Positions 27,537 to 46,006 of a DNA stretch of 64,000 nt are shown one piece after another. Below the pieces are notes generated by a model, which saw nothing but the letters and a program-made list of their open reading frames with translations, was not told where the DNA came from and made no database searches. The position numbers and the translations under genes are program-made. Position 1 is the first letter of the stretch. Each line of letters begins with the position of its first letter. Origin of the DNA: a phage; NCBI GenBank assembly GCA_036253035.1, contig GCA_036253035.1_4123.1, one strand, 5' to 3'.

Positions 27537-27541
27537 ATTAA

Positions 27542-31053: not shown

Positions 31054-31059
31054 ACTTAC

Positions 31060-31160
31060 ATAAAGACGAGATAGTCACTAACCCACAGGGTGCATAGATC
31101 CGTCTATTAAATGATTCAGTACTGCAAAATAAAGGGGATCGTTTGATCCCCTCTGTATTA
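31060..31160 (+). ncRNA. candidate small non-coding RNA (~100 nt)
   Basis: Region between plus-strand promoter and hairpin/U-rich tract; no ORF; contains family dyad motif. Confidence 0.3.
31134..31151. terminator. bidirectional terminator hairpin
   Basis: GGGGATCGTTTGATCCCC flanked by A/T-rich tracts on both sides; downstream of minus gene 31158..31379. Confidence 0.5.
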
Positions 31161-31379
31161 CTTAGTAAGATATAAACAAAAATCACCTTTCTTTGCTACG
31201 CCGCCAGTGTAACGCGATGAATAGTTAGAAACGTCTTGCACTTCTGCAATGACGAGCGTATCATCATTTATTTCGTCGCAAAAACATACTGCGGGATCTT
31301 CTACGCCAATATTGTCAGCATGTGCCCGCATAGATTTAACCAGTGCTTCAAGCTGGGAAAGAGTAGTGATATTAGCCAT
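31158..31379 (-). CDS. hypothetical protein (73 aa)
   Basis: ATG with AAGGAG RBS; hairpin; TTGCAA-N16-TATAAT. Confidence 0.6.
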   Translation of the reverse strand: MANITTLSQLEALVKSMRAHADNIGVEDPAVCFCDEINDDTLVIAEVQDVSNYSSRYTGGVAKKGDFCLYLTK

Positions 31380-31466
31380 TGTAAAACTCCTTATTAGTGG
31401 GGAGAACCATTTCTCCCCTTGATGTAAACTATTATACAGTACTGGAAACTAATTGCAAGTACTTTT

Positions 31467-31670
31467 TTAATTTAATTGCTTTAAAACATAATCAAAGACA
31501 CCACGCACATCATTGATCATCGCCTGGCGGTTAGCAGGTAACGCATCAGGATCGCCACTATCCCAGGCATTAATGAAGCCACCTAAATCATGGAATACTT
31601 TATTCCGTAACCCGATCAACTGCAATTCTTTTTCTTCAAGCTCTTTGATACGTTTAATTAAATCACTCAT
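31467..31670 (-). CDS. hypothetical protein (67 aa)
   Basis: Start moved to ATG of MSDLIKRI with GAGGA RBS. Confidence 0.55.
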   Translation of the reverse strand: MSDLIKRIKELEEKELQLIGLRNKVFHDLGGFINAWDSGDPDALPANRQAMINDVRGVFDYVLKQLN

Positions 31671-31687
31671 TAGATAATCCTCAGTAC

Positions 31688-31972
31688 TCAATTGTAAGAT
31701 CCGCAACGGTCGCAGTAGTGCCCGTCCTCGTCATCTTCTACCACTTGCCCGATGAAATGATCTACTTTCGCTTTCAGGTTATTATAATCGTTTTCTACTT
31801 CCTTTAAACGCTTCTGGTAGTATTCCAGTGCTTTAAGATATGCCGCATCAGTAGTTTTCTCCTGCATAGCTAAATTCATGCCACGCGTTTCATCGTACAG
31901 CCAAAAACCATCGGTGCACTCACTTATAGACAATGACTTGCTTAACACATTGTACTTTATTACTTTACTCAT
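31688..31972 (-). CDS. hypothetical protein with C-terminal CxxC (94 aa)
   Basis: ATG with GAGGA RBS; ends ...HYCDRCGSYN. Confidence 0.6.
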   Translation of the reverse strand: MSKVIKYNVLSKSLSISECTDGFWLYDETRGMNLAMQEKTTDAAYLKALEYYQKRLKEVENDYNNLKAKVDHFIGQVVEDDEDGHYCDRCGSYN

Positions 31973-32057
31973 TAGATAATCCTCAGTAAAGGCGGGAACT
32001 ATTCCCGCTCTCGATATAAAGTATTATACGTTAATCTAATTACTTTGCAAGTACTTT

Positions 32058-32294
32058 TTAGTGCTTTTTATAAAACATCTCAGCGGTGATATTTTTACCC
32101 GTTGGTTGTACTTTATCCAGGATCTTTTGGTGTGCACTACGCCCGAAAGAATAAGAACCGTAAACCGTTAGCCAGTAGTCGCCATTTTGGTTTACATGTA
32201 CCGCACAATAGGGAACGCCCCGCGAATCGTCACCAATGAAGTGTGATACTGTACCCGTTACGTTTGGTGTTGTAGTTTTGATTTGTTCGATCAT
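32058..32294 (-). CDS. hypothetical protein (78 aa)
   Basis: Start moved to ATG of MIEQIKTT with AGGAG RBS. Confidence 0.55.
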   Translation of the reverse strand: MIEQIKTTTPNVTGTVSHFIGDDSRGVPYCAVHVNQNGDYWLTVYGSYSFGRSAHQKILDKVQPTGKNITAEMFYKKH

Positions 32295-32352
32295 TTCTCT
32301 TACTCCTGGGATATAGGCGGGAACCATTCCCCGCCATTGATTCAGTACTGAA

Positions 32353-32964
32353 TTAATATGCGATAGATTCTACTACATCGTCGATAACGTTAAATTGATA
32401 TTCGTTACCCTCGATCAGTGCTACAATGTTTTCAGTAGTAAACTGGTCTTCATAAGCATTTTCTAAATCACGGTACAGCTTACAAGATAATTCTCGGATA
32501 GTATCAGTCAGTAAGTTTTCCAGATCCTCAGCTAATGCAGCCTGTTTTACAGTTAAATCAGTGTAGCGAGTATCAACGCAACCGCCTACCGTGTTTTCGT
32601 GTGCATAACGCGATTGGGAACGTTCTACACTCATTTCCAAATCATCTTCGTTCAACAGGTGACGGATGGAACGATATTTCGTTAACGCCTTAACCTTGCG
32701 TAAAAACTTCTCAGCGTCAACGTGGTCAGTACTGATTGATGCACCGTCACCTTGCGACCAAAAACCACTGTATTGCAATTCAGCTTCATCTATGCCGTAT
32801 TCTGGTAGTACTGTTTCTTTATAGTATTCCAGTACTGATTCAGCAAAGAAATTATCCTCACTTGCACGTTCCCGATCCCGAACCAGTTCGATAGCCGCCG
32901 TTTGTTGTTCTGCGTTCAGTTCAGAAAAAGCCATAACAAAAGTAGTAGTAGTGATAGTTTTCAT
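32353..32964 (-). CDS. hypothetical acidic protein (203 aa)
   Basis: Start moved to ATG of MKTITTTT with GAGGGT RBS; D/E-rich; conserved long leader upstream. Confidence 0.6.
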   Translation of the reverse strand: MKTITTTTFVMAFSELNAEQQTAAIELVRDRERASEDNFFAESVLEYYKETVLPEYGIDEAELQYSGFWSQGDGASISTDHVDAEKFLRKVKALTKYRSIRHLLNEDDLEMSVERSQSRYAHENTVGGCVDTRYTDLTVKQAALAEDLENLLTDTIRELSCKLYRDLENAYEDQFTTENIVALIEGNEYQFNVIDDVVESIAY

Positions 32965-33263
32965 TTTGTAACCCTCATTCATTAGTTGATGTAAGTATTA
33001 TACGCTTTTACTTTCTATTGTCAAACTATTTTATCAGGGGAGTTTTTCATACGTCTTACTCCTGGACTACTTAACAGGGAGTTACTTATTTCATTCCCCG
33101 TCCTGATGTAAAACATTATACGCCTTTAAACATAGTTTGCAAGTACTTTTTGAAAATAGTTTTTAGTACTTTCCTATAGATACACTCCCGCACCCTATGG
33201 GCTATCGCCTTGTGTCCGGCTTGTAAGTATTATCTCACTAAGCCGGATAACGGTCAAGTACTT

Positions 33264-33530
33264 TTATTCAAGTACTGCAATCTTTTTAGTACTGTACACT
33301 GTAACGCGGTTGCCCTTGCGGTCGTGCTTTATTTCTACCACGCGACGCGATACACTATCAGGACGCTTTAAAGCAGATAGCCAGTACTGAATTGATCGGG
33401 CTGTACTTTGCTTTACTACGGCCCAACGTTTACCACGTTCAGATTGTACGCCCATATCTTTAAACGTCGCCCCGTCCTGGCGTGCGGCAATCCGAGCAAG
33501 TTCACGCGTTGCAAAGTATATAATATTCAT
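33264..33530 (-). CDS. hypothetical protein; paralog of 20514..20909
   Basis: Start moved to ATG of MNIIYFATREL; shares FATRE..ATFKDMG..HDRKGNRVTVYS. Confidence 0.6.
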   Translation of the reverse strand: MNIIYFATRELARIAARQDGATFKDMGVQSERGKRWAVVKQSTARSIQYWLSALKRPDSVSRRVVEIKHDRKGNRVTVYSTKKIAVLE

Positions 33531-33612
33531 GCTGTTACCCCTATCGTTGTTGTATAAAAGAAATCTATTATAAAGTACTATCACCGTGCAATAGTACTTT
33601 TAATCTATTCTC

Positions 33613-33852
33613 TTACATTCCAACCATCGCCGCACGGATCGCAGTAGTGCTATACTTAAAGCCGTCCGGTGTTTTATCTTGTCCAGTCTGTTCTAAAAAT
33701 AGCATCATATGACGGGCCGCATCATTACGATTAGTGTTAGCGGCAATAAAGTCCTGGGCCAACCGGTATAATGATTCGTCGTTATTAATCCAAAGGCTTA
33801 CATTCCATTGAGTTTTGTTTTTGTGACCTAAGAACATTTTTGATTTAGCCAT
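33613..33852 (-). CDS. hypothetical protein (79 aa)
   Basis: Start moved to ATG of MAKSKMFLG with AGAGGA RBS. Confidence 0.55.
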   Translation of the reverse strand: MAKSKMFLGHKNKTQWNVSLWINNDESLYRLAQDFIAANTNRNDAARHMMLFLEQTGQDKTPDGFKYSTTAIRAAMVGM

Positions 33853-33945
33853 TTTTTTAATCCTCTTATATAGTGGGGAACTATTCCCCACCTGATGTAA
33901 AACATTATACGCTTTTAAACTTAGTTTGCAAGTACTTTATTAAAC

Positions 33946-34308
33946 TTATTCGTAAATCTTTCCACTATCAGCCCATACCAGGAAACGAGGCATATTATCC
34001 CATGCATCTTGTTTTAAGTTTAAGCCGTGCAATACTTCTGTACTTTCCATTCCTGGTACTGGCTTGCTATACACTGCAAACATTTCGCCCATGTACTGAT
34101 AAGCCATCGTTAAATCAGTCTGGATCATCTTATGTATCATTGCGTCCAGCATTGCAGTAGCTGCATACTGTTCACGCTTAAGCGGTAACATTGCAATCAA
34201 TTCCCGATAAGCTGCAATGTGAATCCGTACAGTCTCAGCGGGAAGATCTTTCATCTCTTCACGGAAAGAAACCAGGTTAAGCATGATAGTATTGATTTGA
34301 GTCGCCAT
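33946..34308 (-). CDS. hypothetical protein (120 aa); first gene of early minus-strand block
   Basis: ATG with AAGAGA RBS; hairpin CGGGAGCGTATCCCCCG; TTGCAA-N16-TAGAAT. Confidence 0.6.
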   Translation of the reverse strand: MATQINTIMLNLVSFREEMKDLPAETVRIHIAAYRELIAMLPLKREQYAATAMLDAMIHKMIQTDLTMAYQYMGEMFAVYSKPVPGMESTEVLHGLNLKQDAWDNMPRFLVWADSGKIYE

Positions 34309-34618
34309 CGTTTTAATCTCTTTTAAAAGTGAGTCGGGAGCGTATCCCCCGTCTCGATGTAAAACATTCTACACCTTTCCCAATACTTTGCAAGTACTTT
34401 CTACAAATACTTTTAAAATAGTTTTCTTTCTATATAGGGGAACTATCTTTCAGTACTGAATCAACCAAATCACTACTATACACCCCATAAAACGGCCTCA
34501 GCCGCTTTCTAACGCATTAATACACCTAAGCTATACATTTGCACCGCCACCAGCTAACCAGGGCTTTACGGGCCGTTTAAACGCGTTAAATTATTTTCAA
34601 TTATTTTGTTTTTAGCTA

Positions 34619-34646
34619 TTGACTCAGCACCGAAAAAGCGTATAAT
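34619..34646 (+). promoter_or_regulatory. plus-strand sigma70-like promoter (TTGACT-N16-TATAAT)
   Basis: -35 at 34619-34624, -10 at 34641-34646; reads into non-coding hub carrying family leader motifs. Confidence 0.5.
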
Positions 34647-35086
34647 TACTACATAGACGCGAGAAAGCGGATACCCCTGGGGGGTGCGGAATTACGCCCA
34701 AAATTCATATAATTTAAAAAGGATACACTCCCGCACCTTAGCAGGTCATAGCACTTTCTCAGTACTGAATAATAGTATCATAGTACGCCCCAGGATGGCA
34801 AGCAAATTAATTAAAACTTTTTGCGTTTAGGGTATTGCTTTATTTTTTCAGTACTGCTATAATATTTTCATCAAGTCGAGAAAGACTCAAGCCCACCGGG
34901 TGCATAGTTACGCCCAAAATTCAGTACTGAAAAAAATTTTAAAAATATCCGTCCAGGCCGTTGACATTGCCCCCAGTTTATAAGATAATGATTCCAGATT
35001 CAGAAAAATCTAACTCCAGATACTGCGGGGAAACTATCCCCACGCGGTAGGGGAACTATTGGAAAAAACAAAATAAAATTTTGATT

Positions 35087-35200
35087 TAGCCGTCTATACT
35101 TCCAGACGTGTAACCATCTAGCCGTTTAGCCGTCCAAACGTCTAGCCATCCAGCCATCCAGAAATCTAGCCGTCTAGCCGTCTAGATGGATAGCCATCTT
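35087..35200. repeat. iteron-like direct repeats, ~10 copies of TAGCC(G/A)TC
   Basis: ttagccgtctat / ctagccgtttagccgtcc / tctagccatccagccatccag / ctagccgtctagccgtctagatggatagccatc. Confidence 0.6.
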
Positions 35201-36051
35201 TACTTCCAGACTTCTGGAGGGCTAGACATATCTACGTCCAAAATCCATCCAGGGTAACTACGCCCAAAATCCGTCAGTACTATACCATAGATCTATCTTG
35301 TGAAAGGAGTATTCAGTACTGCCATCATAGCCCTCACTATGTTACCCTAGGAGGATGAAGACTATCATGTAGTACTGAATACTGTTAGAGGGAATCCACC
35401 AGCACAAGCTGGTGGCATAATGCTTTAGATTAAAATCAGTACTGACACCATTCTGTTAATATCAGTACTGTTATTACGATTTTCATATGAGGTTCAAAAA
35501 GATGTACCACCACAGGAGGAACTATCTTTTCTGTACTGTCTCACGACAGGAGGTAGAGTAAATGAATTGTTGGCAGCAACTCATCTCTCTATGTAGAACA
35601 TTATACAGTACTGAATCATAATGTCAATAACTTTCTTTCATTATTCAGTACTGATATTCTTGAGAACTACCCGTCTACAAACATCATTATATCCCACAAA
35701 TCATAAACGTCCCAACGTAAATTTCAACTTTCGAAGATCCAACTTTTATTTCATAGGTACTCCAAAATTTTTAGGATCGAGATTTAGGATGGAGTACTAA
35801 CCAACTTTTTGCTGGAGCCTCAAGGGGTAATGGAATTTTACCCCGAAGGGTAAAAGGGTAATTGTAATTAAGGTGAAAGTAATAATTCAGTACTAATCAT
35901 TGCGTGATTACTTTTGATTACATTTGATGTAATTTGCAAAATGGAAAAGGAGCTTGGAAACTACAAAGTACGGCAGACTTCCTCTGCCTACTTAGTGGCA
36001 TATCAGTACTGCTACGTTCTTGATTAAACGTGAACATTCCTGTACTCTAGT

Positions 36052-36140
36052 ACTCACTACTGATCACTACTGATCACTACAGTGATTATAAATGATTACT
36101 TAAATGTTTATATATGATTACTTATGACTACCTATGATTA
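36052..36140. repeat. short tandem direct repeats (CACTACTGAT x3; ATGATTAC x3)
   Basis: ctcactactgatcactactgatcactacagtgattataaatgattacttaaatgtttatatatgattacttatgactacctatgattac. Confidence 0.55.
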
Positions 36141-36255
36141 CGGGGTTTAGCCTGGGGAGAATCCTAGTGATCGCATTTGTCCAGGCTGAATTTTAACAAT
36201 TCGCCTGTACATAAAGGTTGTTCACTAGGAGCTTCCCCTGTCTACTTGTGTTTAA

Positions 36256-36447
36256 TTACTTCCTATATATAAGCATTAAGATATAGTAGTACTGATTATA
36301 CTGTACATTCTCTTTAATATTATAAGGGTCTATAGCAATCTCGGTACATCTGTTAAATGCATATCTATTAAATGCCAGTGGAATTATAGATCTAATCCAT
36401 ACTTGTTCATTTTCTTTTAGTTTACTTATATAGAAGTTTTTATACAT
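36256..36447 (-). CDS. MHKEYY-family small protein
   Basis: MYKNFYISKL...ILMLIYRK; last gene of tandem array. Confidence 0.55.
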   Translation of the reverse strand: MYKNFYISKLKENEQVWIRSIIPLAFNRYAFNRCTEIAIDPYNIKENVQYNQYYYILMLIYRK

Positions 36448-36462
36448 AGTATTCTCTATTAA

Positions 36463-36645
36463 TTAATATGATAGTACTAGTGTTAGTACTGAGCACAATT
36501 GTTCTTTATAGTTCTTAGGGTATATAGAATCTTTTATGCACTCATTGAAGTGCCATAGGTATAATCTTGGGTCGCATTCTTTATATATTCTTACGGGGAC
36601 GAATGTTAGTTTTCTTATATAGAATTCTTTATGTTCTTTATTCAT
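36463..36645 (-). CDS. MHKEYY-family small protein
   Basis: MNKEHKEFYIRKL... Confidence 0.55.
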   Translation of the reverse strand: MNKEHKEFYIRKLTFVPVRIYKECDPRLYLWHFNECIKDSIYPKNYKEQLCSVLTLVLSY

Positions 36646-36650
36646 ATTAG

Positions 36651-36836
36651 TTAGTGTCTGTATATAAGTAATAGTAAGAATACGTACTGCACATCTTCAT
36701 CTTTAGTATTGAGTACTGTACGTATTGCGTCATTAAACAAGAATATAGTACTTGGGTCATGAGAATTTAAAGGGGTTCTGGGTACGGCATGTTTGTAGTT
36801 CCCTTTAACAAATTGTGTGTAGTATTCTCTATGCAT
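36651..36836 (-). CDS. MHKEYY-family small protein
   Basis: MHREYYTQFVKGNYKH...LLLLIYRH. Confidence 0.6.
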   Translation of the reverse strand: MHREYYTQFVKGNYKHAVPRTPLNSHDPSTIFLFNDAIRTVLNTKDEDVQYVFLLLLIYRH

Positions 36837-36837
36837 A

Positions 36838-37023
36838 TTAGTACCTATATATTAGGGCGAGAATGTAGTACAATTCATATGGAATGTAATTTGGGGTGAT
36901 CGCACACTGTGTATGGTAAATGAATTGTTCGGTATTTTTCTTATCCTTGATATCTATTGGGATTAGTGGTATAAGCATTTGGGAGTTTAGATCCAGATGG
37001 CTTAAGTAGAATTCTTTATGCAT
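36838..37023 (-). CDS. MHKEYY-family small protein
   Basis: MHKEFYLSHL...ILALIYRY. Confidence 0.6.
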   Translation of the reverse strand: MHKEFYLSHLDLNSQMLIPLIPIDIKDKKNTEQFIYHTQCAITPNYIPYELYYILALIYRY

Positions 37024-37032
37024 ATTGTTCTC

Positions 37033-37221
37033 TTAGAATACGAAAGCTAGGTACAGGGTATGATACAGTACTCGATGATAGCTGTCAAAATCTAGTATAC
37101 ATGCTTTAGTGCACATAGTAAAATACACTTTATCATTTTGTGCATTGATACCGCGAGGTTTATCTAATAGATTAGTTCTGAGGTACATTGGGAAATATTT
37201 TGTGTAGTATTCTTTATGCAT
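37033..37221 (-). CDS. MHKEYY-family small protein
   Basis: Start moved to ATG of MHKEYYTKYFPMYL abutting upstream stop. Confidence 0.55.
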   Translation of the reverse strand: MHKEYYTKYFPMYLRTNLLDKPRGINAQNDKVYFTMCTKACILDFDSYHRVLYHTLYLAFVF

Positions 37222-37222
37222 G

Positions 37223-37405
37223 TTAGTACCTGAATATAAGTAGGATAGTGTTATATAGCTGGTCATAACTACTACTATTTTCTATACTTCGTTCTATGCA
37301 GTTATTGAATCCCAGTACTGCCAAATCGTTATCCAGGGGGACTTTGTATCTGGCGTAGTGTTCAAAAATGCTGGGGAGAAATTGTGTGTAGTATTCTTTG
37401 TGCAT
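37223..37405 (-). CDS. MHKEYY-family small protein
   Basis: MHKEYYTQFLPSIFEHY...ILLIFRY. Confidence 0.6.
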   Translation of the reverse strand: MHKEYYTQFLPSIFEHYARYKVPLDNDLAVLGFNNCIERSIENSSSYDQLYNTILLIFRY

Positions 37406-37406
37406 A

Positions 37407-37592
37407 TTAGTACCTATATATTAGTAAAAGGATGTGATACAGTACTCGATTATAGTCTTCAATATATATCGAGGATTTAGTGCACTGAATGAAGTAGTCT
37501 TTTTCGTAGTTTTTTTCTATACCCAATGGTTCTGTTGGTACAAGGTGTTGGAGATACATTGGGAGTTTCTCTATGTAGTATTCTTTATACAT
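37407..37592 (-). CDS. MHKEYY-family small protein
   Basis: MYKEYYIEKLPMYLQHLVPTEPLGI...LLLIYRY. Confidence 0.6.
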   Translation of the reverse strand: MYKEYYIEKLPMYLQHLVPTEPLGIEKNYEKDYFIQCTKSSIYIEDYNRVLYHILLLIYRY

Positions 37593-37593
37593 G

Positions 37594-37776
37594 TTAGTAC
37601 CTGAATGTTAACATTACTACGTAGTACAGCATATATGGATTATCATCGTATATGAGCGTGTACTTAGTACATTGTTGAAACATTATCTTTGCGTGATCTT
37701 TTATTCCTATTGGTTCTGTTGGTATATGGTGCTGGAGATGCATTGGGAGATGTTCCCTGTAGTATTCTTTATACAT
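37594..37776 (-). CDS. MHKEYY-family small protein
   Basis: Start moved to ATG of MYKEYYREHLPMHLQHHIPTEPIGI. Confidence 0.55.
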   Translation of the reverse strand: MYKEYYREHLPMHLQHHIPTEPIGIKDHAKIMFQQCTKYTLIYDDNPYMLYYVVMLTFRY

Positions 37777-38440
37777 AGTTTGTAATATACGTAATGAGGT
37801 GATGCATTTTCTTATTAGTACTGATAAGTTCCTGTACATGTTTTGTCAGATTGTACGCGTTTTTATAGAGTACTGGATTATCGATTACAGTACTGTACAT
37901 GAATAGTTCTTCTTCCTGTAGTTCTTTGTGTTCTAGTTCTTTGAGGAATTGTAGTACTGTATCAGTTTCTTCTGTACGTTGTGCTTGCCAGAAGTGCATA
38001 TTCTCGTGTACTTTTTCTGCATCAGTAGAGTATATGCCACCCATTTGGAATTGTGCTGTATTGACATCGTGGGAGGTGTTACAATTCCCGAAGAAGTATG
38101 TATTCCCGAAGTATAGCATTAAAGTGCACGGGGTATTATCCAACTGCATATTGATGATGAAGGATGCGTTCTTTAGTACCTTTGTGCTCGTATTAGTACT
38201 CAATACTTTTAAATCAGTATTATAGATATTCATATAATGAACAGCTATATTATTTTTCTTCATGTACAATTCAAGGTTCTTTGATACGTTAACTCCATTT
38301 GTACTGGATTTTTCCTTTTTATTTCGTTTCTTTAGTACATTCGGGTGATACGTATATGCAGATGTAACTGATTCTGCCTGAATACTATTGAGGTACTTAA
38401 AGTGCTTAAGGTATTGTTTGCTGTGTGCATTAAGTTTCAT
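37769..38440 (-). CDS. hypothetical protein, EEFFQ-motif family (dispersed copy)
   Basis: Motif EEELFMYSTVIDNPVLY inside the MHKEYY array. Confidence 0.55.
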   Translation of the reverse strand: MKLNAHSKQYLKHFKYLNSIQAESVTSAYTYHPNVLKKRNKKEKSSTNGVNVSKNLELYMKKNNIAVHYMNIYNTDLKVLSTNTSTKVLKNASFIINMQLDNTPCTLMLYFGNTYFFGNCNTSHDVNTAQFQMGGIYSTDAEKVHENMHFWQAQRTEETDTVLQFLKELEHKELQEEELFMYSTVIDNPVLYKNAYNLTKHVQELISTNKKMHHLITYITNYV

Positions 38441-38450
38441 TTGGTTTCCT

Positions 38451-38630
38451 TTATATAGATGCCAGGGCGAGGATTTCCCTGTAGGGATTATCTTGTGTTA
38501 GTACAGCATAAATGCAGCTATTGAGATTAATATTTTTAGTACTTTTTGTTCCTAGTTTGTAGTACTTCACGAAGGTGTCGTACATGAAACGGTCTTTTAT
38601 GGTTATACGTTCTCTATAGAATTGTTGCAT
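38451..38630 (-). CDS. MHKEYY-family small protein (59 aa, below track cutoff)
   Basis: Manually translated MQQFYRERITIKDRFMYDTF...; AAGGAA RBS. Confidence 0.45.
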   Translation of the reverse strand: MQQFYRERITIKDRFMYDTFVKYYKLGTKSTKNINLNSCIYAVLTQDNPYREILALASI

Positions 38631-38638
38631 AGTATTCC

Positions 38639-38821
38639 TTAAATAGCGATTAGTTTCATTACTTCTCTGTATGTGTACTTTTCGTTTTGTGCATCTCTTG
38701 TGACGACATATAGGAAGGTGTGTTTATCTTTTTTGTTCCCGCAATTGTAGAAAATATTGAACTTATTGAAGTTGAATCTTTCGGCGTGTTGTAGTTTAGT
38801 TAAATAGAATTCTATGTTCAT
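38639..38821 (-). CDS. MHKEYY-family small protein
   Basis: MNIEFYLTKL...KYTYREVMKLIAI. Confidence 0.55.
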   Translation of the reverse strand: MNIEFYLTKLQHAERFNFNKFNIFYNCGNKKDKHTFLYVVTRDAQNEKYTYREVMKLIAI

Positions 38822-38829
38822 TTTCTTCC

Positions 38830-39015
38830 TTACATTTCAATAAGTTTAATTACTGCTCGGTACGTGTACTTAGTTGTCAGTGCTTCTTTAATAGAAATAC
38901 AGAAGTAATGTTGTTTGTCTCTTATACTGCCGCGTTTGTAGTACCACACATGGGAGTTGTGACTGTACTTGTCTCTGTCGGATAGTTGTTGGTAGTAGTA
39001 GCTTATATGATTCAT
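38830..39015 (-). CDS. MHKEYY-family small protein
   Basis: MNHISYYYQQL...KYTYRAVIKLIEM. Confidence 0.55.
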   Translation of the reverse strand: MNHISYYYQQLSDRDKYSHNSHVWYYKRGSIRDKQHYFCISIKEALTTKYTYRAVIKLIEM

Positions 39016-39067
39016 TATAATGTAATTAGCCTTACTATATTAAAGTACTCAGTTCCTGTTGCACCTT

Positions 39068-39262
39068 TTAGAACTTAAAGATGAGGTTCAGGATAGAGCG
39101 GTACTTAGTTTCAGGGAACGTATGTTCTATTGCATAACGTGTCACCATCCTGAAATCGTAATTATAATACAGATTATCCTTTCTCATAGGTGGTGCTAAA
39201 GAGAATGATAGCTGTTCTTGTTTGGGTAGTTTACTACAATAGAAATCTTTATGATTATTCAT
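39068..39262 (-). CDS. MHKEYY-family small protein
   Basis: MNNHKDFYCSKL... Confidence 0.55.
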   Translation of the reverse strand: MNNHKDFYCSKLPKQEQLSFSLAPPMRKDNLYYNYDFRMVTRYAIEHTFPETKYRSILNLIFKF

Positions 39263-39464
39263 AGAAATATATTAGTCCTATTAAACCTGAGTACATAATA
39301 TTTTTGTTATTACATTCGATTGCTTCTAGAGTACTACGTATACAATTATTAAAGCAATCTCTGGCGTGTGGTGTATCTATACTTAAAGGTGATACACTCC
39401 TTAGAAACAATTGTTCTTCGTTGCTAAGGTATTTGGTGTAGAATTCTTTATGTTCAGTATTCAT
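39255..39464 (-). CDS. MHKEYY-family small protein
   Basis: MNTEHKEFYTKYL... Confidence 0.55.
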   Translation of the reverse strand: MNTEHKEFYTKYLSNEEQLFLRSVSPLSIDTPHARDCFNNCIRSTLEAIECNNKNIMYSGLIGLIYFYE

Positions 39465-39465
39465 A

Positions 39466-39669
39466 TTAGTACTCGATTAAAAGGGCAAGGATATAATAGT
39501 ATTGCATACTTTCTGCCCCTTGTAAAGCATTTCTTATGATATTACTCCTGTACGAGTTCAGGAGTTTAGGACAACGTTTGTAGTGTATAAAAGTATTTTG
39601 TGTATACAGTAGGCTTTCTCGTAGACCTTTTGTTGGTAGTGCATCGATGTAGTACTGTTCAATGTTCAT
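39466..39669 (-). CDS. MHKEYY-family small protein
   Basis: MNIEQYYIDAL... Confidence 0.5.
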   Translation of the reverse strand: MNIEQYYIDALPTKGLRESLLYTQNTFIHYKRCPKLLNSYRSNIIRNALQGAESMQYYYILALLIEY

Positions 39670-39893
39670 ATAGATAGCAGTACTAAGATTTTTGATAATT
39701 GTTTATTGCTATCCCCGCAGATGTTGCTGTGTAAAATACTCACAATGAGGGTATCAATTGCATTGTTCATCATAAGGGTGCATCCTGGACTATTATAATT
39801 TTTTAGCTCAATTAGCCACGAACTATCCGAGAGAAATTCCCCGTACTCTAGTTCATTTAGAGTATTGAGGTAGTACTTAAGAGTATTTGTCAT
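39666..39893 (-). CDS. small protein, first gene of MHKEYY array
   Basis: MTNTLKYYLNTL...; ATG with AAGGAGAA RBS downstream of promoter. Confidence 0.5.
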   Translation of the reverse strand: MTNTLKYYLNTLNELEYGEFLSDSSWLIELKNYNSPGCTLMMNNAIDTLIVSILHSNICGDSNKQLSKILVLLSI

Positions 39894-39918
39894 GTGTAGT
39901 TCTCCTTATATTCCTTCT

Positions 39919-39947
39919 ATAGTACACCAGTACTGAAAGGATGTCAA
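39919..39947 (-). promoter_or_regulatory. sigma70-like promoter (TTGACA-N17-TACTAT) for MHKEYY array
   Basis: -35 at 39942-39947, -10 at 39919-39924; divergent from plus-strand array promoter. Confidence 0.5.
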
Positions 39948-39959
39948 GGGTTTTCTTTT

Positions 39960-39995
39960 TGTATTAAATATAGTATAATGAATAAGGAGGGATTT
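39960..39995 (+). promoter_or_regulatory. plus-array promoter-like box (ATAGTATAATGAATAA) plus AGGAGG SD
   Basis: TATAAT at 39974-39979, no convincing -35; same module as between all downstream array genes. Confidence 0.5.
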
Positions 39996-41198
39996 ATGTT
40001 ACCTTTTGGAAGAATGATTAAGTACGCAAATATTGCACCAGGTCCAGAACCTGTAGAGTTCTCAGATGTTTTACAACAACATTATACAAACTGTATGTAT
40101 CTACATAACCCAACTAATACTTTATATGGTTATGGTAGTAATAACATGTATCAATTTGGTCTTGGGAATTCAGCAGCAGTTTCGTCATTTACAGTACTTG
40201 CAAGGAACTGTGCAGCCTTTTGGCTTGGTGTTCAAGGTTCATTGATGATTGATTTGGATAATAAAATATACTACACTGGGTCGGTTGGTGCATTTTCTGA
40301 TTATGGAGATGCAACACCTGTTAATGGTTATTTGACAACATGGACTGATGTTACTGTTGCATTTAATAAAATAGGTGTTATGGCTAATATGATCAAGAGT
40401 GTATATATAGGTGAAAGTACTAGAATATTATTAACCGATGGTAGAGTAATTGCGTGTGGAAGAAATACTAATGGTGAATGTGGCTCTGGTAATAAAAATT
40501 CCATCCCTACACTCACAGTTATGACTAATATGGGTGAAGTTACACATATGGCATGTTCATTACAAGGAACGCACTATATCAAATCAAATAAAGATGCATG
40601 GTTTTGTGGTAAGGATAACTTTGGTGAAAGTGGATGTGGTGGTAGTTCTGTTGTATATTTGAACAAATTCGTGATTAGTAATGTAGAACATATTAGTACT
40701 ACATACGATGTTACTTGGTGGTTTACTACTGGTGGGTCTGTATATTATAGCGGGGTTAACAGTACTGGACAAGCTGGTAATGGTACGACTACATCGGTAA
40801 ATCAGCTAACACCAATTAGGAACACATCGGTCACGGTTGATGTAAGTAAGTACAGTACTTTTATTTGTCCAAGTAATATGGGAAATGCATCAATTGGTGC
40901 ACCTATGGCACAATACGCACCATATGTTAGAAGTAGTGGTGCTAACTCATATGGTCAAGAAGGTAATGGAACTAATACATTAGTTAGAACTTGGAATATT
41001 TTTAATCTTAGTGCAATAAGTGGTGGTTATGACAATGTTCTTATGGCATCTAAAGATTGGAGCAGAACCATAATAATTACTAAAGATTATAAATTATATG
41101 CATGTGGTGGCTGGAATGGAAATGGTGGTAGATTGCCAGATGGCACTTATAGTATTACTACACTAACATTAATGCCAACGCAGTTATGGCAACAATAG
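39996..41198 (+). CDS. RCC1-like beta-propeller repeat protein with conserved N-terminal leader
   Basis: Starts MLPFGRMIKYANIAPGP; repeated G-x-N-x-x-G-Q/E-x-G-x-G motifs; AGGAGG RBS. Confidence 0.8.
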   Translation: MLPFGRMIKYANIAPGPEPVEFSDVLQQHYTNCMYLHNPTNTLYGYGSNNMYQFGLGNSAAVSSFTVLARNCAAFWLGVQGSLMIDLDNKIYYTGSVGAFSDYGDATPVNGYLTTWTDVTVAFNKIGVMANMIKSVYIGESTRILLTDGRVIACGRNTNGECGSGNKNSIPTLTVMTNMGEVTHMACSLQGTHYIKSNKDAWFCGKDNFGESGCGGSSVVYLNKFVISNVEHISTTYDVTWWFTTGGSVYYSGVNSTGQAGNGTTTSVNQLTPIRNTSVTVDVSKYSTFICPSNMGNASIGAPMAQYAPYVRSSGANSYGQEGNGTNTLVRTWNIFNLSAISGGYDNVLMASKDWSRTIIITKDYKLYACGGWNGNGGRLPDGTYSITTLTLMPTQLWQQ

Positions 41199-41206
41199 GA
41201 GGGAAT

Positions 41207-42316
41207 ATGTTACCTTTTGGAAGAATGATTAGGTATGGAAATATTGTCCCTGGTCCTAAAAAAATAATTAAAGTTGGTGCTTCTACCCAAGGCCAATTCT
41301 TATTGACTGATTCACATGATTTATATTACATAGGTAGAAATCAAGGTGGTGAATCTGGAAATGGTAATACCAACACGGTGTCTTCGTGGACATTAGTAAG
41401 TGCAGATGTTTCTAATTTTTTCGTGGGTGATCGTACACTTGTTATTATTAAAAATGATAATACGATATGGACATCAGGTCAAACGTACTGGTTCTCATCT
41501 TCTACAACTACTTCTTACAGTACTGTATTAGTTGAAAGAACTAATTGGTTTACCAATGCTATACCAGTAAGTGAAATTGCTAATATTGTATGTACAAATG
41601 GTTTAATATTTGTACTTAGCACTAATTCAGTACTCTATGGTGCAGGAGATAATGGATATCGTGGTTCTTTGGGTATTGGTTCCTCATCAATTTACACATT
41701 AACTCAATGTGCTACGAACGTTCGTAAAGTAATGACCAATGCGAATGATAGTATGTATCTTACATTAGATAATAAGCTATATAGTTCTGGATGGAATAGT
41801 AGTGGGCAGCATGGTACGGGGAACCAAACACAAATTAACACTTGGGGATTGCGTAGTTCTGGTGTAATCGATGCAGCCATTGGTGGTAATGCATTAAATT
41901 ACTATAATGGTACATCATATTTCGTATGTGGTCAAACTCCAAACTTTCTTAGTTCAGGCACGACTACATTCCGTGCCGTTCCTGTAAGTACTTTGCCTAA
42001 TAGTTCTCCGTTGTTTATGACGAATTCACCTGCCTTAAATACTGCTACACAAATGGTAATTACTAGTACATATCAGAAGGGTGTTGGGGCGAACCGTGGT
42101 TTGGGATTAAACAATTCTCAAACTGGTGCTATATATAGTGCTACCAATTTACAATTACCCGTTGAAGTTAGTGAGATTAGGGATGTTCTTTTTAGTGATG
42201 GTTTGACATCGATATTAACCAAAAATGGAGATGTGTATAGTACTGGATCGTATTACGCCATTCCAGGTGCAATCGAGGATGTTGCAGTCTTTACTAAAAT
42301 TGATTTACCAAAATAA
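41207..42316 (+). CDS. beta-propeller-like repeat protein with conserved N-terminal leader
   Basis: Starts MLPFGRMIRYGNIVPGP; Gly/Ser/Thr/Asn-rich repeats; coupled to upstream gene. Confidence 0.8.
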   Translation: MLPFGRMIRYGNIVPGPKKIIKVGASTQGQFLLTDSHDLYYIGRNQGGESGNGNTNTVSSWTLVSADVSNFFVGDRTLVIIKNDNTIWTSGQTYWFSSSTTTSYSTVLVERTNWFTNAIPVSEIANIVCTNGLIFVLSTNSVLYGAGDNGYRGSLGIGSSSIYTLTQCATNVRKVMTNANDSMYLTLDNKLYSSGWNSSGQHGTGNQTQINTWGLRSSGVIDAAIGGNALNYYNGTSYFVCGQTPNFLSSGTTTFRAVPVSTLPNSSPLFMTNSPALNTATQMVITSTYQKGVGANRGLGLNNSQTGAIYSATNLQLPVEVSEIRDVLFSDGLTSILTKNGDVYSTGSYYAIPGAIEDVAVFTKIDLPK

Positions 42317-42387
42317 CATAATGCCAGTACAGAGTACTGGCTTTCTTATTTGTATTAAATATAGTATAATGAATAAAGGAGGGAAAT
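42317..42387 (+). promoter_or_regulatory. intergenic module: terminator hairpin, T-run, TATAAT box, AGGAGG
   Basis: Hairpin GCCAGTACAGAGTACTGGC 42323-42341 + T-run; TATAAT 42365-42370. Confidence 0.6.
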
Positions 42388-43527
42388 ATGTTACCTTTTG
42401 CAAGAATGGTTAAGTACGGGAATATCGCACCTGAACTGATTCTACCTAAAAACAGGTTACAATGTTCTGCTGATGCCAAATTTTATTTACACACAAATGG
42501 CAATCTATATTGGTTTGGTTCTTCAGCATATGGACAAAGTGGTAATGGTTCATTGGACTCTTCAACTGAATGGACTCTTGTCAACTCAAATGTTACACGA
42601 TATTGGGGTGGGGTACAAGGAACAATTGCTATAAAGAAAGATGGTACTATTTGGTACACTGGTAGACGTACTGTTATTCCAATACTATCTTCAAACACTA
42701 ACGGCGTTTGGGTTGATATAACACAGAACTTTACTGATTTCGGTGTCAGTGCAGATGATATTGATAGTGTTGTGATATCTTCGTGTATGCGTGTATTTTT
42801 AAAAAATGGAAAGTGGTTCTACTGTGGTGCTGGTACTGGTGGTGTTTTTGGGAATGGATCAACTTCAAGCGTTTCACGATTCACCTATAGTACAATAGAA
42901 AATGTTATCAGTGCTGGTTGTGCAATATATAGTACTGGATTAGTACTAAATGATGGTTCATATTGGTATGCAGGTAGAACGTTTGTATCAGGAACGACGA
43001 CACAAAACTTGCTCACATTTACACAAGATACTTCGATTAGTAATGCAATTAAAGCAGTCAATACAAATGAAACTTCTTATATATTTCTTAATGATGGTAA
43101 TGTTAAAGTTGCATCTATTAACGACTATGGACAAGCAGGTACAGGAAATAGGTCAGTAGCCCCAATGAGTACATTAATTCCAAATTTATCATTCCAAGGA
43201 GAAGTGGAGTTGGTGGGTGAGCTTGGGACAAACCTTACCGGACCATCCTGTATAATTAATAATAATAATAAGTTATTTTCATGTGGCCTTAATTCAAATG
43301 GTCAATGTGGTATTGGTACAACTGATATGTATATAACATCATTCGCTGAAATGGATCTTACTGCATTAGAAGGTAGTAATCTTAGTAGTTTTTGTAAGAG
43401 CTATTCTTATACGATGTTAGTTGACGAATATAATAATTTATACACATGTGGTGTACCCAATCTTACTGGAATGTCTTCAACTACTGTACCAACAAGGGTT
43501 CCTGATTCACTTCTACCGTGGAAATAA
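42388..43527 (+). CDS. RCC1-like beta-propeller repeat protein with conserved N-terminal leader
   Basis: Starts MLPFARMVKYGNIAP; YGQSGNGS, YGQAGTGN, NGQCGIGT repeats. Confidence 0.8.
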   Translation: MLPFARMVKYGNIAPELILPKNRLQCSADAKFYLHTNGNLYWFGSSAYGQSGNGSLDSSTEWTLVNSNVTRYWGGVQGTIAIKKDGTIWYTGRRTVIPILSSNTNGVWVDITQNFTDFGVSADDIDSVVISSCMRVFLKNGKWFYCGAGTGGVFGNGSTSSVSRFTYSTIENVISAGCAIYSTGLVLNDGSYWYAGRTFVSGTTTQNLLTFTQDTSISNAIKAVNTNETSYIFLNDGNVKVASINDYGQAGTGNRSVAPMSTLIPNLSFQGEVELVGELGTNLTGPSCIINNNNKLFSCGLNSNGQCGIGTTDMYITSFAEMDLTALEGSNLSSFCKSYSYTMLVDEYNNLYTCGVPNLTGMSSTTVPTRVPDSLLPWK

Positions 43528-43598
43528 TATAATGCCAGTACACTGTACTGGCTTTCTTATTTGTATTAAATATAGTATAATGAATAAAGGAGGGAAAT
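43528..43598 (+). promoter_or_regulatory. intergenic terminator/promoter/SD module
   Basis: Hairpin 43534-43552 + T-run; TATAAT 43576-43581; near-identical to 42317 copy. Confidence 0.6.
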
Positions 43599-44747
43599 AT
43601 GTTACCTTTTGCAAGAATGATGAATTATGGGAATATTGCCCCTGGTAAGGATAGGCGTTTTAAAATATATTCAAGTGATTCTATGTATCTCCATGATACT
43701 TATACTAATAAGTTGTATGCATCTTCTGCGACGAATTGGGGTACTGGTACAGGTGTAGCATCGAGTAAATTTATTCTTTGTGCAGAGAATGTTAAACGAG
43801 TTCTATTGGAAGATAACAGTAGTAGTTGTCAAATGTATGAAGAGAAAGGTACTGGAAAAGTTTTTATCACTGGTAACACGAAGGCATTCACTGGTGTAAC
43901 TGATACAAAAACTTTGTGGACGGACTGTACTACGTGGATAACATCAGGTGGTATTAATGTTTCTGATATAAAATACATGAGTAGTTTTAATGATATGAAG
44001 GTGAATTTGATAACAAACGATGGTACGTTGTATTGTTGTGGAGTTAACAATAACTCGAACCTATCATCATTTGGTGATGGTACAAACATTAATTCTTTTA
44101 ACACATTCAAAAGGGTAGATACTATAACTTCGGTTAAAAAGGCAGTTGGTAACATATACCTAAAAGAAGATAATACTTTATGGGGTTGTGGTTTTAACTA
44201 TTACTATCAGTTAGGTACAGGTAATCAAACTTCTATTACTGGGGTGACGATGATTGCTTCAGATGTTATAGATTTTGATGTAAGTTATCAGAGTACATTT
44301 TTTATTAAATCGGATAATAATTTGTACGCTTGTGGTAAACAGTTCGGTGCACAATACGGGAACGAATTTGGCACAGGTGGTACTTCTTCATCTACCGATA
44401 TACAATACAAAACTCCGACATTATTGAGTTCAGGAGTTTATACTCTATATACGTGTGTTAGTAACATGGCATCACATATAGCTAAAGGTGATGAAGTTCT
44501 ATACGCATCTGGGTCGAATGGATTTGGTCAATTAGGTGTTGGTAATAATATTAATCAGTACTCATATACTCCTTCGTATACTTCGTTTAATAGTTCGTGT
44601 AATTTGGTACGCACTCCATCTGGTTCACTTATACTTACGGACACTGAGCAATTATATTATTGTGGGTATGCTATGGTAGTAATGGGGGGAATTGCTGGAC
44701 AAAACATTCTTAGTTATACAGAAGTTGATATGTCATTTATACAATGA
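43599..44747 (+). CDS. RCC1-like beta-propeller repeat protein with conserved N-terminal leader
   Basis: Starts MLPFARMMNYGNIAP; close paralog of 46888..48036. Confidence 0.8.
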   Translation: MLPFARMMNYGNIAPGKDRRFKIYSSDSMYLHDTYTNKLYASSATNWGTGTGVASSKFILCAENVKRVLLEDNSSSCQMYEEKGTGKVFITGNTKAFTGVTDTKTLWTDCTTWITSGGINVSDIKYMSSFNDMKVNLITNDGTLYCCGVNNNSNLSSFGDGTNINSFNTFKRVDTITSVKKAVGNIYLKEDNTLWGCGFNYYYQLGTGNQTSITGVTMIASDVIDFDVSYQSTFFIKSDNNLYACGKQFGAQYGNEFGTGGTSSSTDIQYKTPTLLSSGVYTLYTCVSNMASHIAKGDEVLYASGSNGFGQLGVGNNINQYSYTPSYTSFNSSCNLVRTPSGSLILTDTEQLYYCGYAMVVMGGIAGQNILSYTEVDMSFIQ

Positions 44748-44818
44748 TTTAATGCCAGTACTCTGTACTGGCTTTCTTATTTGTATTAAATATAGTATAA
44801 TGAATAAAGGAGGAATTT
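44748..44818 (+). promoter_or_regulatory. intergenic terminator/promoter/SD module
   Basis: Same ~70-bp module. Confidence 0.6.
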
Positions 44819-46006
44819 ATGTTACCTTTTGCAAGAATGATGAATTATGGGAATATTGCCCCAGTACCACTTCAAATTAAGAAAATAATCCCAACTGATT
44901 TAGATGTTGTGGTTCTGTATACGGATGGTCAACTATATGCACGTGGGAATAATAGTTTTGGGAAATTCGGTAGAGGAAACAACACTGCATTAAAATCATG
45001 GACATTAATTAGAGAAAACGTTAACGATTGCTGGCTTACACAAGGAACTTTATTAGTAAAAGACAATGACTCAAATTATTATTACTGTGGATATGGTAGT
45101 CATATTGGTTTATCAACTAGTACTACTACGTTTTTAAGTTATAACCAATATATTCAAAATTTGTACACACAAAGTTCAAGTACTTCAATTAAACAGATGT
45201 ATGGAGGTACTACGTGGTTTACTGTGTTAATGGATAATAATACAATATGGAGTACAGGGTGGAACAGTGCTAGACAATTCGCAGATGGTACAGGAACTAC
45301 TTATGAAATAACCGATGGTTCATTTGTAAAAGCGGTCACACCTAATGTTGATATTGCACAAATACAGTCAACAAATAACTGTGTATTGTTGTTTGATAAA
45401 CAAAATAATTTATATATTGGTGGTGTTACATCCGGTATAAGTTCCGCGACTACATGGACTTCATATAATGAATATACTTTATATCAACCAAATACAACAT
45501 ACACAAAAACGTTACAATACACAGGATGCTCAACTGGTGCAGTAAGTGCTTTAGTTGAAAATCCAAATACAGGAGCACGTCAGTTCCTTGTCGGTGGGTT
45601 AGCTAATAATGGGGCATGGGGAAATAACACTACATCTAGCTCTGTTAATGGAGTTTTAGGAAATAACAGTACTACGTTACCACCCGGTACTTTGTATTCA
45701 ATTCATACTGGATACCCACCACAATCTAGTATACTAATTACGAGTACTGGTGTATATGCAACTGGTTTAAATGCCAGTAGTTATGCTGGTTCATTGGGTA
45801 TTGGTACTAGTGCAACTGTTGGTAAGTTTACTGCATGTCCAATGCCTACACAAATAACATATTCTATGTATGATAAAATAAAAATATATAGAGGTTCATA
45901 TCGTACATTTCTAACTGATATGAAAAATATATATTCAACCGGAACTTATGATGATGGTGGTCCTAGTACAACTAGATATGTACTAGATACACCCCGACAA
46001 TTATAA
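44819..46006 (+). CDS. beta-propeller-like repeat protein with conserved N-terminal leader
   Basis: Starts MLPFARMMNYGNIAP. Confidence 0.8.
   Translation: MLPFARMMNYGNIAPVPLQIKKIIPTDLDVVVLYTDGQLYARGNNSFGKFGRGNNTALKSWTLIRENVNDCWLTQGTLLVKDNDSNYYYCGYGSHIGLSTSTTTFLSYNQYIQNLYTQSSSTSIKQMYGGTTWFTVLMDNNTIWSTGWNSARQFADGTGTTYEITDGSFVKAVTPNVDIAQIQSTNNCVLLFDKQNNLYIGGVTSGISSATTWTSYNEYTLYQPNTTYTKTLQYTGCSTGAVSALVENPNTGARQFLVGGLANNGAWGNNTTSSSVNGVLGNNSTTLPPGTLYSIHTGYPPQSSILITSTGVYATGLNASSYAGSLGIGTSATVGKFTACPMPTQITYSMYDKIKIYRGSYRTFLTDMKNIYSTGTYDDGGPSTTRYVLDTPRQL

Follow-up and report, generated by a model that had tools for sequence, protein, structure and literature searches.

A tandem operon of small ORFan genes in an Asteriusvirus jumbo coliphage: one fixed protein scaffold with paralogue-specific surfaces

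Introduction

What are fifteen small genes in a row, most of which encode diverged copies of one protein of about sixty residues, to a phage? The question is raised by a 64,000-nucleotide (nt) stretch of phage DNA, contig GCA_036253035.1_4123.1 of the GenBank assembly GCA_036253035.1 (hereafter the window), in which positions 36256-39893 hold fifteen back-to-back minus-strand open reading frames (ORFs) of 59-75 amino acids (aa) when family-consistent starts are used, together with one unrelated gene of 223 aa. An earlier note, made from the letters of this DNA alone, described the locus as a tandem array of about 15 paralogues of ~60 aa. This description holds for 14 genes, which are supported by hidden Markov models (HMMs), leave-one-out searches and profile-profile comparison; the first gene of the array (39666-39893) is only a possible distant member. 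We are confident that the genes are real and maintained, and that they form a compact operon encoding a scaffold-plus-variable-surface family that gains and loses units. As a whole, the locus is best explained as an early, coupled polycistronic operon that provides a panel of small soluble binders, an explanation to which we give an even chance of being right.

The phage and the distribution of the family

Megablast analysis of positions 36000-40000 against a phage collection reports 36 matching records, every one of them an Escherichia or Salmonella jumbo phage of the genus Asteriusvirus, and the best match is phage 121Q (98.4% identity, 100% coverage). From these matches, the array is assigned as a small-protein operon of an Asteriusvirus jumbo coliphage. 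The locus is already deposited as hypothetical proteins, and the core of the family is an existing PHROG of unknown function (phrog_11711). In the 121Q record, the locus is annotated one for one as 'hypothetical protein' gp249-gp265, and the divergent genes as 'regulator of chromosome condensation' (RCC1-like). A literature search for an account of the array family, its structure or its function found no paper.

The family is also narrowly distributed. Among 5.8 billion proteins, a word-indexed search with the profile of the family retrieves 52, all of 41-84 aa, and those that are named belong without exception to Escherichia or Salmonella phages that are Asteriusvirus-like. When 1.84 billion cluster representatives are scanned exhaustively with HMMER, only 34 clusters of the family emerge, all of 41-75 aa, and tblastn of the most divergent ones leads to the Escherichia phages JNE01 and Turkey5 and to the same phage group. 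Every match that carries a name or can be located lies in an Escherichia or Salmonella Asteriusvirus-like phage. The array family is therefore, as far as such searches can tell, a genus-restricted ORFan family without cellular homologues.

Members of the array family

Of the 739 six-frame ORFs in the window, an HMM built from the 15 genes matches exactly these 15 (E 2e-13 to 4e-24); outside the array, no ORF scores better than E 0.007. This test is circular and was therefore repeated leaving each member out. Twelve members are then found again at E<=4e-4 and a thirteenth, 38451-38630, at E 0.026; the search misses 39466-39669 and 39666-39893 (E ~0.6, with 0.62 for 39666-39893). The profile-profile tests rely on separate profiles made from database orthologues, with 100 column shuffles as controls. 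Comparison of the core profile by hhalign reports subgroup B (38451-39015) with 89% probability (E 2.3e-6 over 54 columns; score 29.1 vs 9.4±2.2 for the shuffles) and subgroup C (39466-39669) with 76% probability (E 2.3e-5 over 56 columns; score 28.1 vs 9.4±1.9). The first gene reaches E 0.01-0.05 (score 15.0 vs 8.5±1.4, the best shuffle scoring 13.7), and only its N-terminal YY..L motif aligns with the core with confidence. AlphaFold2 (AF2) prediction of its product from four near-identical sequences gives an all-helical model of low confidence (predicted local distance difference test, pLDDT, 53.6). An orthologue of this gene is found in all 7 close relatives. On this sequence evidence, 14 members belong to one family, and 39666-39893 may, on weak signal, be a distant one. 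The shared N-terminal pattern described in the earlier note stands, alignment, HMM and profiles all reporting conservation rather than the lack of it that the note had named as its refutation.

Eight core members tested match phrog_11711 (PHROGs v4; E 1.6e-6 to 5e-28, profile positions 1-62), and both BLAST and leave-one-out HMM group two further core genes, 36838-37023 and 37223-37405, with these eight. None of the three subgroup B genes, nor 39466-39669 or 39666-39893, matches a PHROG at E<=0.01. The subgroup B trio and 39466-39669 are joined to the family here through profile-profile comparison, and extend it, at the level of sequence profiles, beyond phrog_11711. With 14 supported genes, the array is a tandem multigene family in the sense of at least three adjacent, homologous genes on the same strand. 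The hypothetical proteins of 121Q (gp249-gp265), PBECO4, G17, phAPEC6 and their relatives, as well as phrog_11711, represent the same family at the same locus, with the difference that phrog_11711 holds the core type only and lacks subgroup B, 39466-39669 and 39666-39893. One start had to be reassigned: the ORF at 37033-37221 is listed as 77 aa with an upstream start, and its family-consistent start is the ATG at 37221.

Remodelling and selection across relatives

The locus was compared between the window, six further close relatives (seven close genomes in all) and the most divergent phage, JNE01, members being called by HMM. The comparison of copy number across relatives that the earlier note had proposed gives a range of 14 to 22: 14 copies in UE-S1, 15 in this window and in SD-15_S21, 16 in 121Q, 17 in G17, 21 in E9.1 and 22 in BF17. 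JNE01 returns 15 HMM matches, plus the first gene, which the HMM does not recognise; its layout is the same as in the close relatives, and every array faces an RCC1-like gene. All 120 copies of the seven genomes and all 15 of JNE01 (135 in total) are intact ORFs on the same strand. Clustering at 65% identity yields 26 orthologue groups in colinear order, 11 of them universal in the seven close genomes and 15 missing from at least one. Some database variants are chimeras: P0002 combines a 37594-type N-terminus with a 37407-type body, and P0005 a 37407-type body with a 37033-type C-terminus. Because they join neighbouring units, they are the product expected from unequal crossing-over. Remodelling of the array continues, with single units being gained, lost or fused.

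The duplications themselves are old, since Tandem Repeats Finder reports no DNA periodicity of unit length in the array and the paralogues are 13-53% identical; a recent burst of duplication is rejected for the same two reasons. Orthologues are 85-99% identical at the nucleotide level. The ratio of nonsynonymous to synonymous substitution rates (dN/dS, Nei-Gojobori method, concatenated genes) is 0.41, 0.36 and 0.36 for the window against BF17, UE-S1 and E9.1, respectively, and the array is under purifying but fairly relaxed selection.

These results bear on the idea that the units are largely redundant duplicates, kept mainly as filler of an enlarged capsid as in the ratchet model (Hua et al. 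2017, PMC5646251). For 121Q and phage G, it has been suggested that jumbo genomes expand by way of tandem duplication (PMC5646251; PMC7247149), and the 15 of 26 orthologue groups that at least one genome lacks would fit with dispensable filler. Filler would not, however, be expected to remain intact in 135 of 135 copies, to show a dN/dS of 0.36-0.41 or to keep 11 universal groups in a fixed order. The distance between paralogues, as compared with the closeness of orthologues, further argues that distinct copies have been maintained long-term, and we regard capsid filling as a poor explanation of the array.

Predicted fold and protein properties

AF2 modelling of the 37407-37592 protein, from an alignment of 26 sequences, returns a pLDDT of 92.5 and a predicted template modelling score (pTM) of 0.75. 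Helices are predicted at residues 2-7, 12-15, 28-43 and 47-60, with an extended, proline-containing segment at residues 16-27. In the modelled fold, the two short N-terminal helices and the proline-containing loop pack against a C-terminal helical hairpin. Foldseek analysis of the model reports no match in the PDB and, among the predicted viral structures of the BFVD, only two members of the array family itself. Searching PDB sequences with the family profile returns only a designed repeat protein (E 0.02). Pfam analysis gives no match above noise for the array members, and no gene of the operon has a Pfam domain. The model matches no DNA-binding fold, the helix-turn-helix (HTH) fold included, nor does it resemble in structure any of the sigma or RNA polymerase binders solved in the PDB. 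As to anti-defence proteins, neither homology nor a specific fold match was found in the PDB or the BFVD, and no HTH regulator of the Aca (anti-CRISPR-associated) type is recognisable in the operon.

Over the paralogues, conservation amounts to 100% for Y6, 82% for L10, 87% for F/Y34, 77% for Y51 and 90% for L57, and the other positions common to all are Y5/F, P22, T/I38, A41, L/I42, I/V54, L55 and I58. The conserved positions show helical periodicity and therefore fit a buried core. Most of the remaining columns exceed 3 bits of entropy between paralogues and have at least 0.9 identity within orthologue groups. The family is a fixed scaffold with paralogue-specific, individually maintained surfaces.

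The hydrophobic C-terminus spans ~12 residues and packs as a helix in the AF2 model. Over the 120 proteins of the seven close genomes, the maximum 19-residue Kyte-Doolittle mean is 1.18, the usual membrane threshold being ~1.6, and a membrane protein of the holin, exclusion or toxin type is rejected on this value. The proteins are rich in tyrosine (11% vs 6.5% in the large ORFs of the window), and their isoelectric points (pI) range from 4.7 to 10.0, with 68 of 120 above 8. From the model and these values, they are probably soluble, helical proteins of ~60 aa. The absence of membrane segments, which are common in exclusion proteins, also speaks against a role in competition between phages, by superinfection exclusion or by interference with co-infecting phages or satellites, in which case the targets would not be host proteins. 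Such a role would suit proteins that are small, diversified, variable between close relatives and probably early, and we hold it to be improbable.

Gene junctions and translational coupling

The spacers of 1-15 nt reported in the earlier note are found at most junctions, the exceptions being two overlaps and one longer gap. In the window, the spacers are -8, -4, 1 (five times), 5, 8, 8, 9, 15 and 52 nt, and across the seven genomes 98 of 113 junctions measure 15 nt or less and 17 are overlaps. The only long gap, of 52 nt, comes after 39068-39262, and phage G17 holds an extra gene there. Junctions of 1 nt read AGG TAC TAA N ATG, and AGGT thereby lies 7 nt before the next start; at junctions of 8-9 nt, TAAGGA or TAAGAG overlaps the stop codon. 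Among arginine codons, AGG accounts for 31 of 40 within the last three codons vs 38 of 289 elsewhere (Fisher p 1e-16, the copies not being independent). Because AGG is enriched at the C-termini and AGGT precedes the next ATG by 7 nt, part of the conserved 'RY' C-terminus is best explained, from these codon patterns, as dual coding for the Shine-Dalgarno sequence of the following gene.

The same junctions invite a different explanation, namely that the frames are open by chance in AT-rich non-coding DNA, or that they are read through by frameshifting into one long repeat protein. At 36 junctions of the form TAC TAA N ATG, the next gene lies in the +1 frame past a Shine-Dalgarno-like AGG, which is superficially like the prfB site. 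By the rules of codon-anticodon pairing, however, a tRNA-Tyr bound to UAC is unable to re-pair on ACU. Junctions of -8, -4, 5, 8, 9, 10 and 15 nt place neighbours in all relative frames, and every unit keeps its own ATG and Shine-Dalgarno sequence. Fusion of units by read-through or frameshifting is rejected on this heterogeneity of junction frames. As the family signal is also far above chance and dN/dS is below 1, we give this explanation almost no weight.

Promoter and timing of expression

The promoter that had been proposed at the upstream end of the array, divergent from a propeller array, is located between the first gene and an RCC1-repeat protein (Table 1), and its hexamers are kept in eight genomes, as is the strong ribosome-binding site of the first gene. 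The -35 hexamer is invariant in all eight, the -10 hexamer is TACTAT or TACAAT, and 6 of the 17 spacer positions vary. The site has sigma70 hexamers at the correct spacing, upstream of the first gene and conserved, as would be looked for in an early operon read by the host RNA polymerase. Another promoter-like site, inside the array at 37088-37060 (11/12 match), is rejected, since it is lost in two relatives through a coding change, and is probably due to chance.

The T4-type late motif TATAAATA is strongly depleted, with one occurrence in the 64-kb window vs 15.9±4.1 expected; this one copy lies at 51783-51790, in antisense orientation to the RCC1-like genes, and there is none in or near the array. 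The depletion suggests that the motif has a function in other parts of the phage genome and is avoided in the window. The related jumbo phage PA5oct depends on the host RNA polymerase, uses TTGAC/TATAATA promoters and transcribes clusters of mostly uncharacterised genes early (PMC7318152). By analogy, the array genes are probably expressed early.

Early expression from a host-type promoter would also be likely if the paralogues were regulators internal to the phage, either small modifiers of the host RNA polymerase or of sigma factors, of which T4 AsiA and T7 Gp2 are examples, or factors of translation or timing. Small, all-helical proteins would be apt for such a task, and the window has a high density of consensus sigma70 promoters, which would at some point need to be shut off. 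A single regulatory task nevertheless leaves 14-22 maintained, surface-diversified and partly dispensable paralogues unexplained, and the lack of structural similarity to the solved sigma and RNA polymerase binders adds to this difficulty. We consider regulators unlikely, though deserving more weight than capsid filler or inter-phage competition.

The divergent RCC1-like array

In every genome examined, the small-gene array and the RCC1-like array are separated by a divergent control region of 84 nt. The neighbour on the plus strand, 39978-41198, is an RCC1-repeat protein by its match to PF00415 (E 1.6e-9, above the cut-off); it also matches PF25390 (E 4.7e-29, below the curated cut-off of that family). 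It opens an array of 15 RCC1-repeat (beta-propeller) paralogues at 39978-57290 on the plus strand. Downstream of the annotated start at 39978 come AAGGAGG and then, at codon 7, another ATG, at which translation may in fact begin.

The shared control region raises the possibility that the two divergent arrays are one module, the small proteins being partners of the RCC1-like proteins, or packaged internal or DNA-associated proteins. Two RCC1-like neighbours, gp549 and gp551, are present in the virion proteome of phAPEC6 (PMC7247149), and many of the small paralogues are basic. The table of 62 phAPEC6 virion proteins includes none of gp530-gp548 (PMC7247149), however, and hence no small array protein. 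The charge of the paralogues spans acidic to basic, their model matches no DNA-binding fold, and the array is devoid of a T4-type late promoter motif. This explanation is accordingly given a low probability, similar to that of capsid filler.

Function of the array

The explanation that we prefer remains an early operon encoding a panel of binders. Its functional part, that is, early transcription by the host RNA polymerase, coupling, and a panel of binders directed against different targets, we judge to be somewhat less probable than an even chance. Host sigma70 RNA polymerase would transcribe the operon leftward from 39947-39919, early in infection, and translation would be coupled from gene to gene. 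At 1-nt spacers, the next Shine-Dalgarno sequence would be written in the C-terminal Arg-Tyr codons, and at 8-9-nt spacers it would overlap the stop codon (TAAGGA). Each of these small proteins would bind a different target stoichiometrically, the likeliest targets being host proteins or defence factors, and the array would then serve as a panel for host takeover or counter-defence. A narrower version, to which we attach only tentative belief, is that of a 'mini-binder' repertoire: a helical scaffold of ~60 aa would combine a fixed core with a diversified loop or surface, and every paralogue would have its own host defence or host factor to neutralise. If so, gain, loss and fusion of units between strains should track the defence content of their hosts. 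More speculative still is the idea that the units, each a single hairpin, assemble non-covalently into a hetero-oligomeric alpha-solenoid.

Several points weigh against a panel of early binders. A dN/dS of ~0.4 reflects purifying selection, not the diversifying selection that an active arms race might leave, and the few pairs with dN/dS above 1 depend on very few substitutions. The promoter matches 10 of the 12 consensus positions, and promoter-like matches of this class are not enriched in this AT-rich region (17 found vs 24.9 expected); the case for the promoter therefore rests on its position, its conservation and three observations of context, namely the 13 perfect consensus sites in the adjacent 20 kb of the same strand, the depletion of the late motif and the host-type transcription of PA5oct. 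No Asteriusvirus transcriptome or expression data were found in the literature searched, and we therefore infer the early timing. Finally, small proteins are easily overlooked by mass spectrometry of virions, which weakens the point that the array products are not virion-associated.

The embedded gene and the downstream region

The 223-aa gene within the array is unrelated to its neighbours, as the earlier note had claimed, but the label 'EEFFQ family' that the note gave it is unsupported. BLASTP of its product against the EEFFQ ORFs 5072-5629 and 5917-6462 (minus strand) reports no significant similarity (E 0.08 and 0.63). The gene belongs to phrog_29152 and the EEFFQ ORFs to phrog_19795, and its membership of the EEFFQ family is rejected on both counts. 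The C-terminal part of the protein (…QEEELFMYSTVIDNPVL…) is colinear with the EEFFQ region of both phrog_19795 proteins, at the same non-significant E values, and there may be a distant relationship. With 10 nt between it and the gene before, and an 8-nt overlap with the one after, the gene is placed in the same operon. A gene of ~220 aa interrupts the array at the same place in all eight genomes examined. Like the array family, it is a genus-restricted ORFan, for which no domains or solved relatives were found. Its homologues P0081, P0082, P0088 and P0089 carry the label 'Escherichia coli'; their contigs, of ~355 kb, are probably complete Asteriusvirus genomes inside bacterial assemblies.

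Directly downstream of the array, the ORF-poor stretch of ~1.9 kb at 34310-36255 is a candidate non-coding RNA or processing element. It holds a long hairpin (36154-36238; Table 1), possibly a 3'-end, processing or small-RNA element of the transcript, and adjoining it, a block that is identical in the seven genomes compared. Short tandem repeats of 10-22 nt occur at 36054-36141. Rfam has no match in the window at gathering thresholds, and downstream of the array there is only a chance-level one. The hairpin at 35972-35988 is a candidate end of the transcription unit, before a perfect sigma70 promoter at 35627-35600.

Further along the same strand, the ~18 kb at 17618-35627 carry 13 perfect (12/12) TTGACA-N16/17-TATAAT sites, all on the minus strand (at 35627, 33024, 29455, 25741, 25159, 24058, 23019, 22043, 21775, 21416, 20986, 18835 and 17645), many 11/12 sites as well, and few ORFs above 100 aa. 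To judge from these sites, the stretch appears to be an early region that the host transcribes very strongly.

The window also contains a second tandem array of small genes, at 9823-15474 on the minus strand, to which 7405-7620 and the C-terminal part of 7915-8724 are added. It comprises at least 23 paralogues of 52-90 aa with the motif LGTNYQE..V..YI..L, belongs to phrog_4148, of unknown function, and is unrelated to the family at 36256-39893. A link between the two arrays was tried and rejected (hhalign E 0.045 over 2 columns).

Table 1. Genes of the array and associated elements, in the order of transcription
Feature	Position	Strand	Details
Promoter, sigma70-type (predicted), TTGACA-N17-TACTAT	39919-39947	-	predicted transcription start near 39912
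Shine-Dalgarno AAGGAG of first gene	39902-39907	-	8 nt upstream of ATG at 39893; conserved in relatives
First gene (doubtful distant member)	39666-39893	-	75 aa, acidic, pI 4.7; N-terminal YY..L motif, C-terminal hydrophobic helix
Subgroup C member	39466-39669	-	67 aa; 4-nt overlap with previous gene (ATGA); no PHROG match
Core member	39255-39464	-	69 aa; phrog_11711 E 2.1e-13; leave-one-out E 5e-12
Core member	39068-39262	-	64 aa; phrog_11711 E 2.1e-25; 8-nt overlap with previous gene
Subgroup B member	38830-39015	-	61 aa; leave-one-out E 4e-4
Subgroup B member	38639-38821	-	60 aa; leave-one-out E 2e-5
Subgroup B member	38451-38630	-	59 aa; leave-one-out E 0.026; clusters with the other two subgroup B members
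Embedded unrelated gene	37769-38440	-	223 aa; phrog_29152
Core member	37594-37776	-	60 aa; phrog_11711 E 7.1e-25; leave-one-out E 2e-13
Core member	37407-37592	-	61 aa; phrog_11711 E 6.9e-28; modelled with AF2
Core member	37223-37405	-	60 aa; leave-one-out E 2e-11
Core member	37033-37221	-	62 aa; phrog_11711 E 5e-28
Core member	36838-37023	-	61 aa; leave-one-out E 1e-10
Core member	36651-36836	-	61 aa; phrog_11711 E 6.5e-9; leave-one-out E 1e-9
Divergent core member	36463-36645	-	60 aa; phrog_11711 E 1.6e-6; leave-one-out E 9.5e-7
Last member	36256-36447	-	63 aa; phrog_11711 E 7.1e-24
Long hairpin, non-coding	36154-36238	-	directly after last gene; minimum free energy -39.7 kcal/mol, z -3.55, 0 of 200 shuffles as good
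Weak terminator-like hairpin GGCAGAGGAAGTCTGCC	35972-35988	-	poor T run; in 6 of 7 aligned genomes

Comparison with known systems

General remarks on tandem duplication have been published for 121Q and phAPEC6 (PMC5646251; PMC7247149). Arrays of '>30 very similar genes', attributed to such duplication, were described for 121Q and phage G by Hua et al. (2017, PMC5646251), and Bacillus phage G carries a zinc-ribbon expansion of ~35 copies (Iyer et al. 2021, PMC7824862). The array studied here resembles these expansions in being a head-to-tail series of small, functionally uncharacterised paralogues carried by a jumbo phage and presumably produced by tandem duplication. It differs from them in that its copies are strongly diverged rather than 'very similar' and have no zinc-ribbon or other known domain. 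The statement on 121Q probably refers to the phrog_4148 array (~9823-15474) and not to 36256-39893.

The host-takeover module of the Bacillus phage SPO1 and the early genes of T4 and T5 are clusters of small, early host-takeover genes. The array shares with these clusters, and with those of PA5oct, many small genes of unknown function, host-type promoters, strong ribosome-binding sites and a location separate from the structural genes. However, those clusters consist mostly of unrelated genes, whereas the array repeats one fold 14-22 times and its early expression is an expectation. Anti-CRISPR and anti-defence loci are, as a rule, mixtures of unrelated genes. The array is similar to them as an operon of small (50-150 aa), fast-evolving ORFans with presence/absence variation between relatives, and unlike them in showing no similarity to a solved or predicted viral anti-defence protein and no recognisable Aca-type HTH regulator.

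Among eukaryotic viruses, the amplification of K3L in poxviruses and the multigene families MGF110/360 of African swine fever virus (ASFV) are families or 'genomic accordions' with an established link to immune evasion. They have in common with the array tandem paralogues, a copy number that varies between strains, and gain, loss and fusion of units by unequal recombination. For the array, the link to immune evasion is only a hypothesis, and its copies are ancient and individually conserved, in contrast to recent amplifications. By analogy, the array would come closest to the early clusters of SPO1, T4 and PA5oct in how it works, and to the multigene families of large eukaryotic DNA viruses in how it evolves. 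We class it as an uncharacterised case of lineage-specific tandem expansion of small ORFan genes in jumbo phages.

Implications

In jumbo phages, tandem families of tiny ORFans take up large parts of the genome, and the window alone holds three such arrays. The present one is tractable, with a confidently predicted fold that has no known relative, a split between scaffold and variable surface, and a defined promoter, and the more than 30 sequenced relatives are natural copy-number variants of it. If its paralogues have no separable functions, this would support the view that tandem duplication in jumbo phages mainly serves genome filling. If they are target-specific inhibitors, the array would offer new small proteins that inhibit E. 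coli and Salmonella proteins or defence systems, and would show how phages build diversified effector repertoires. Should the mini-binder reading prove true, phages would have, in this array, an equivalent of the multigene families that serve poxviruses and ASFV in immune evasion.

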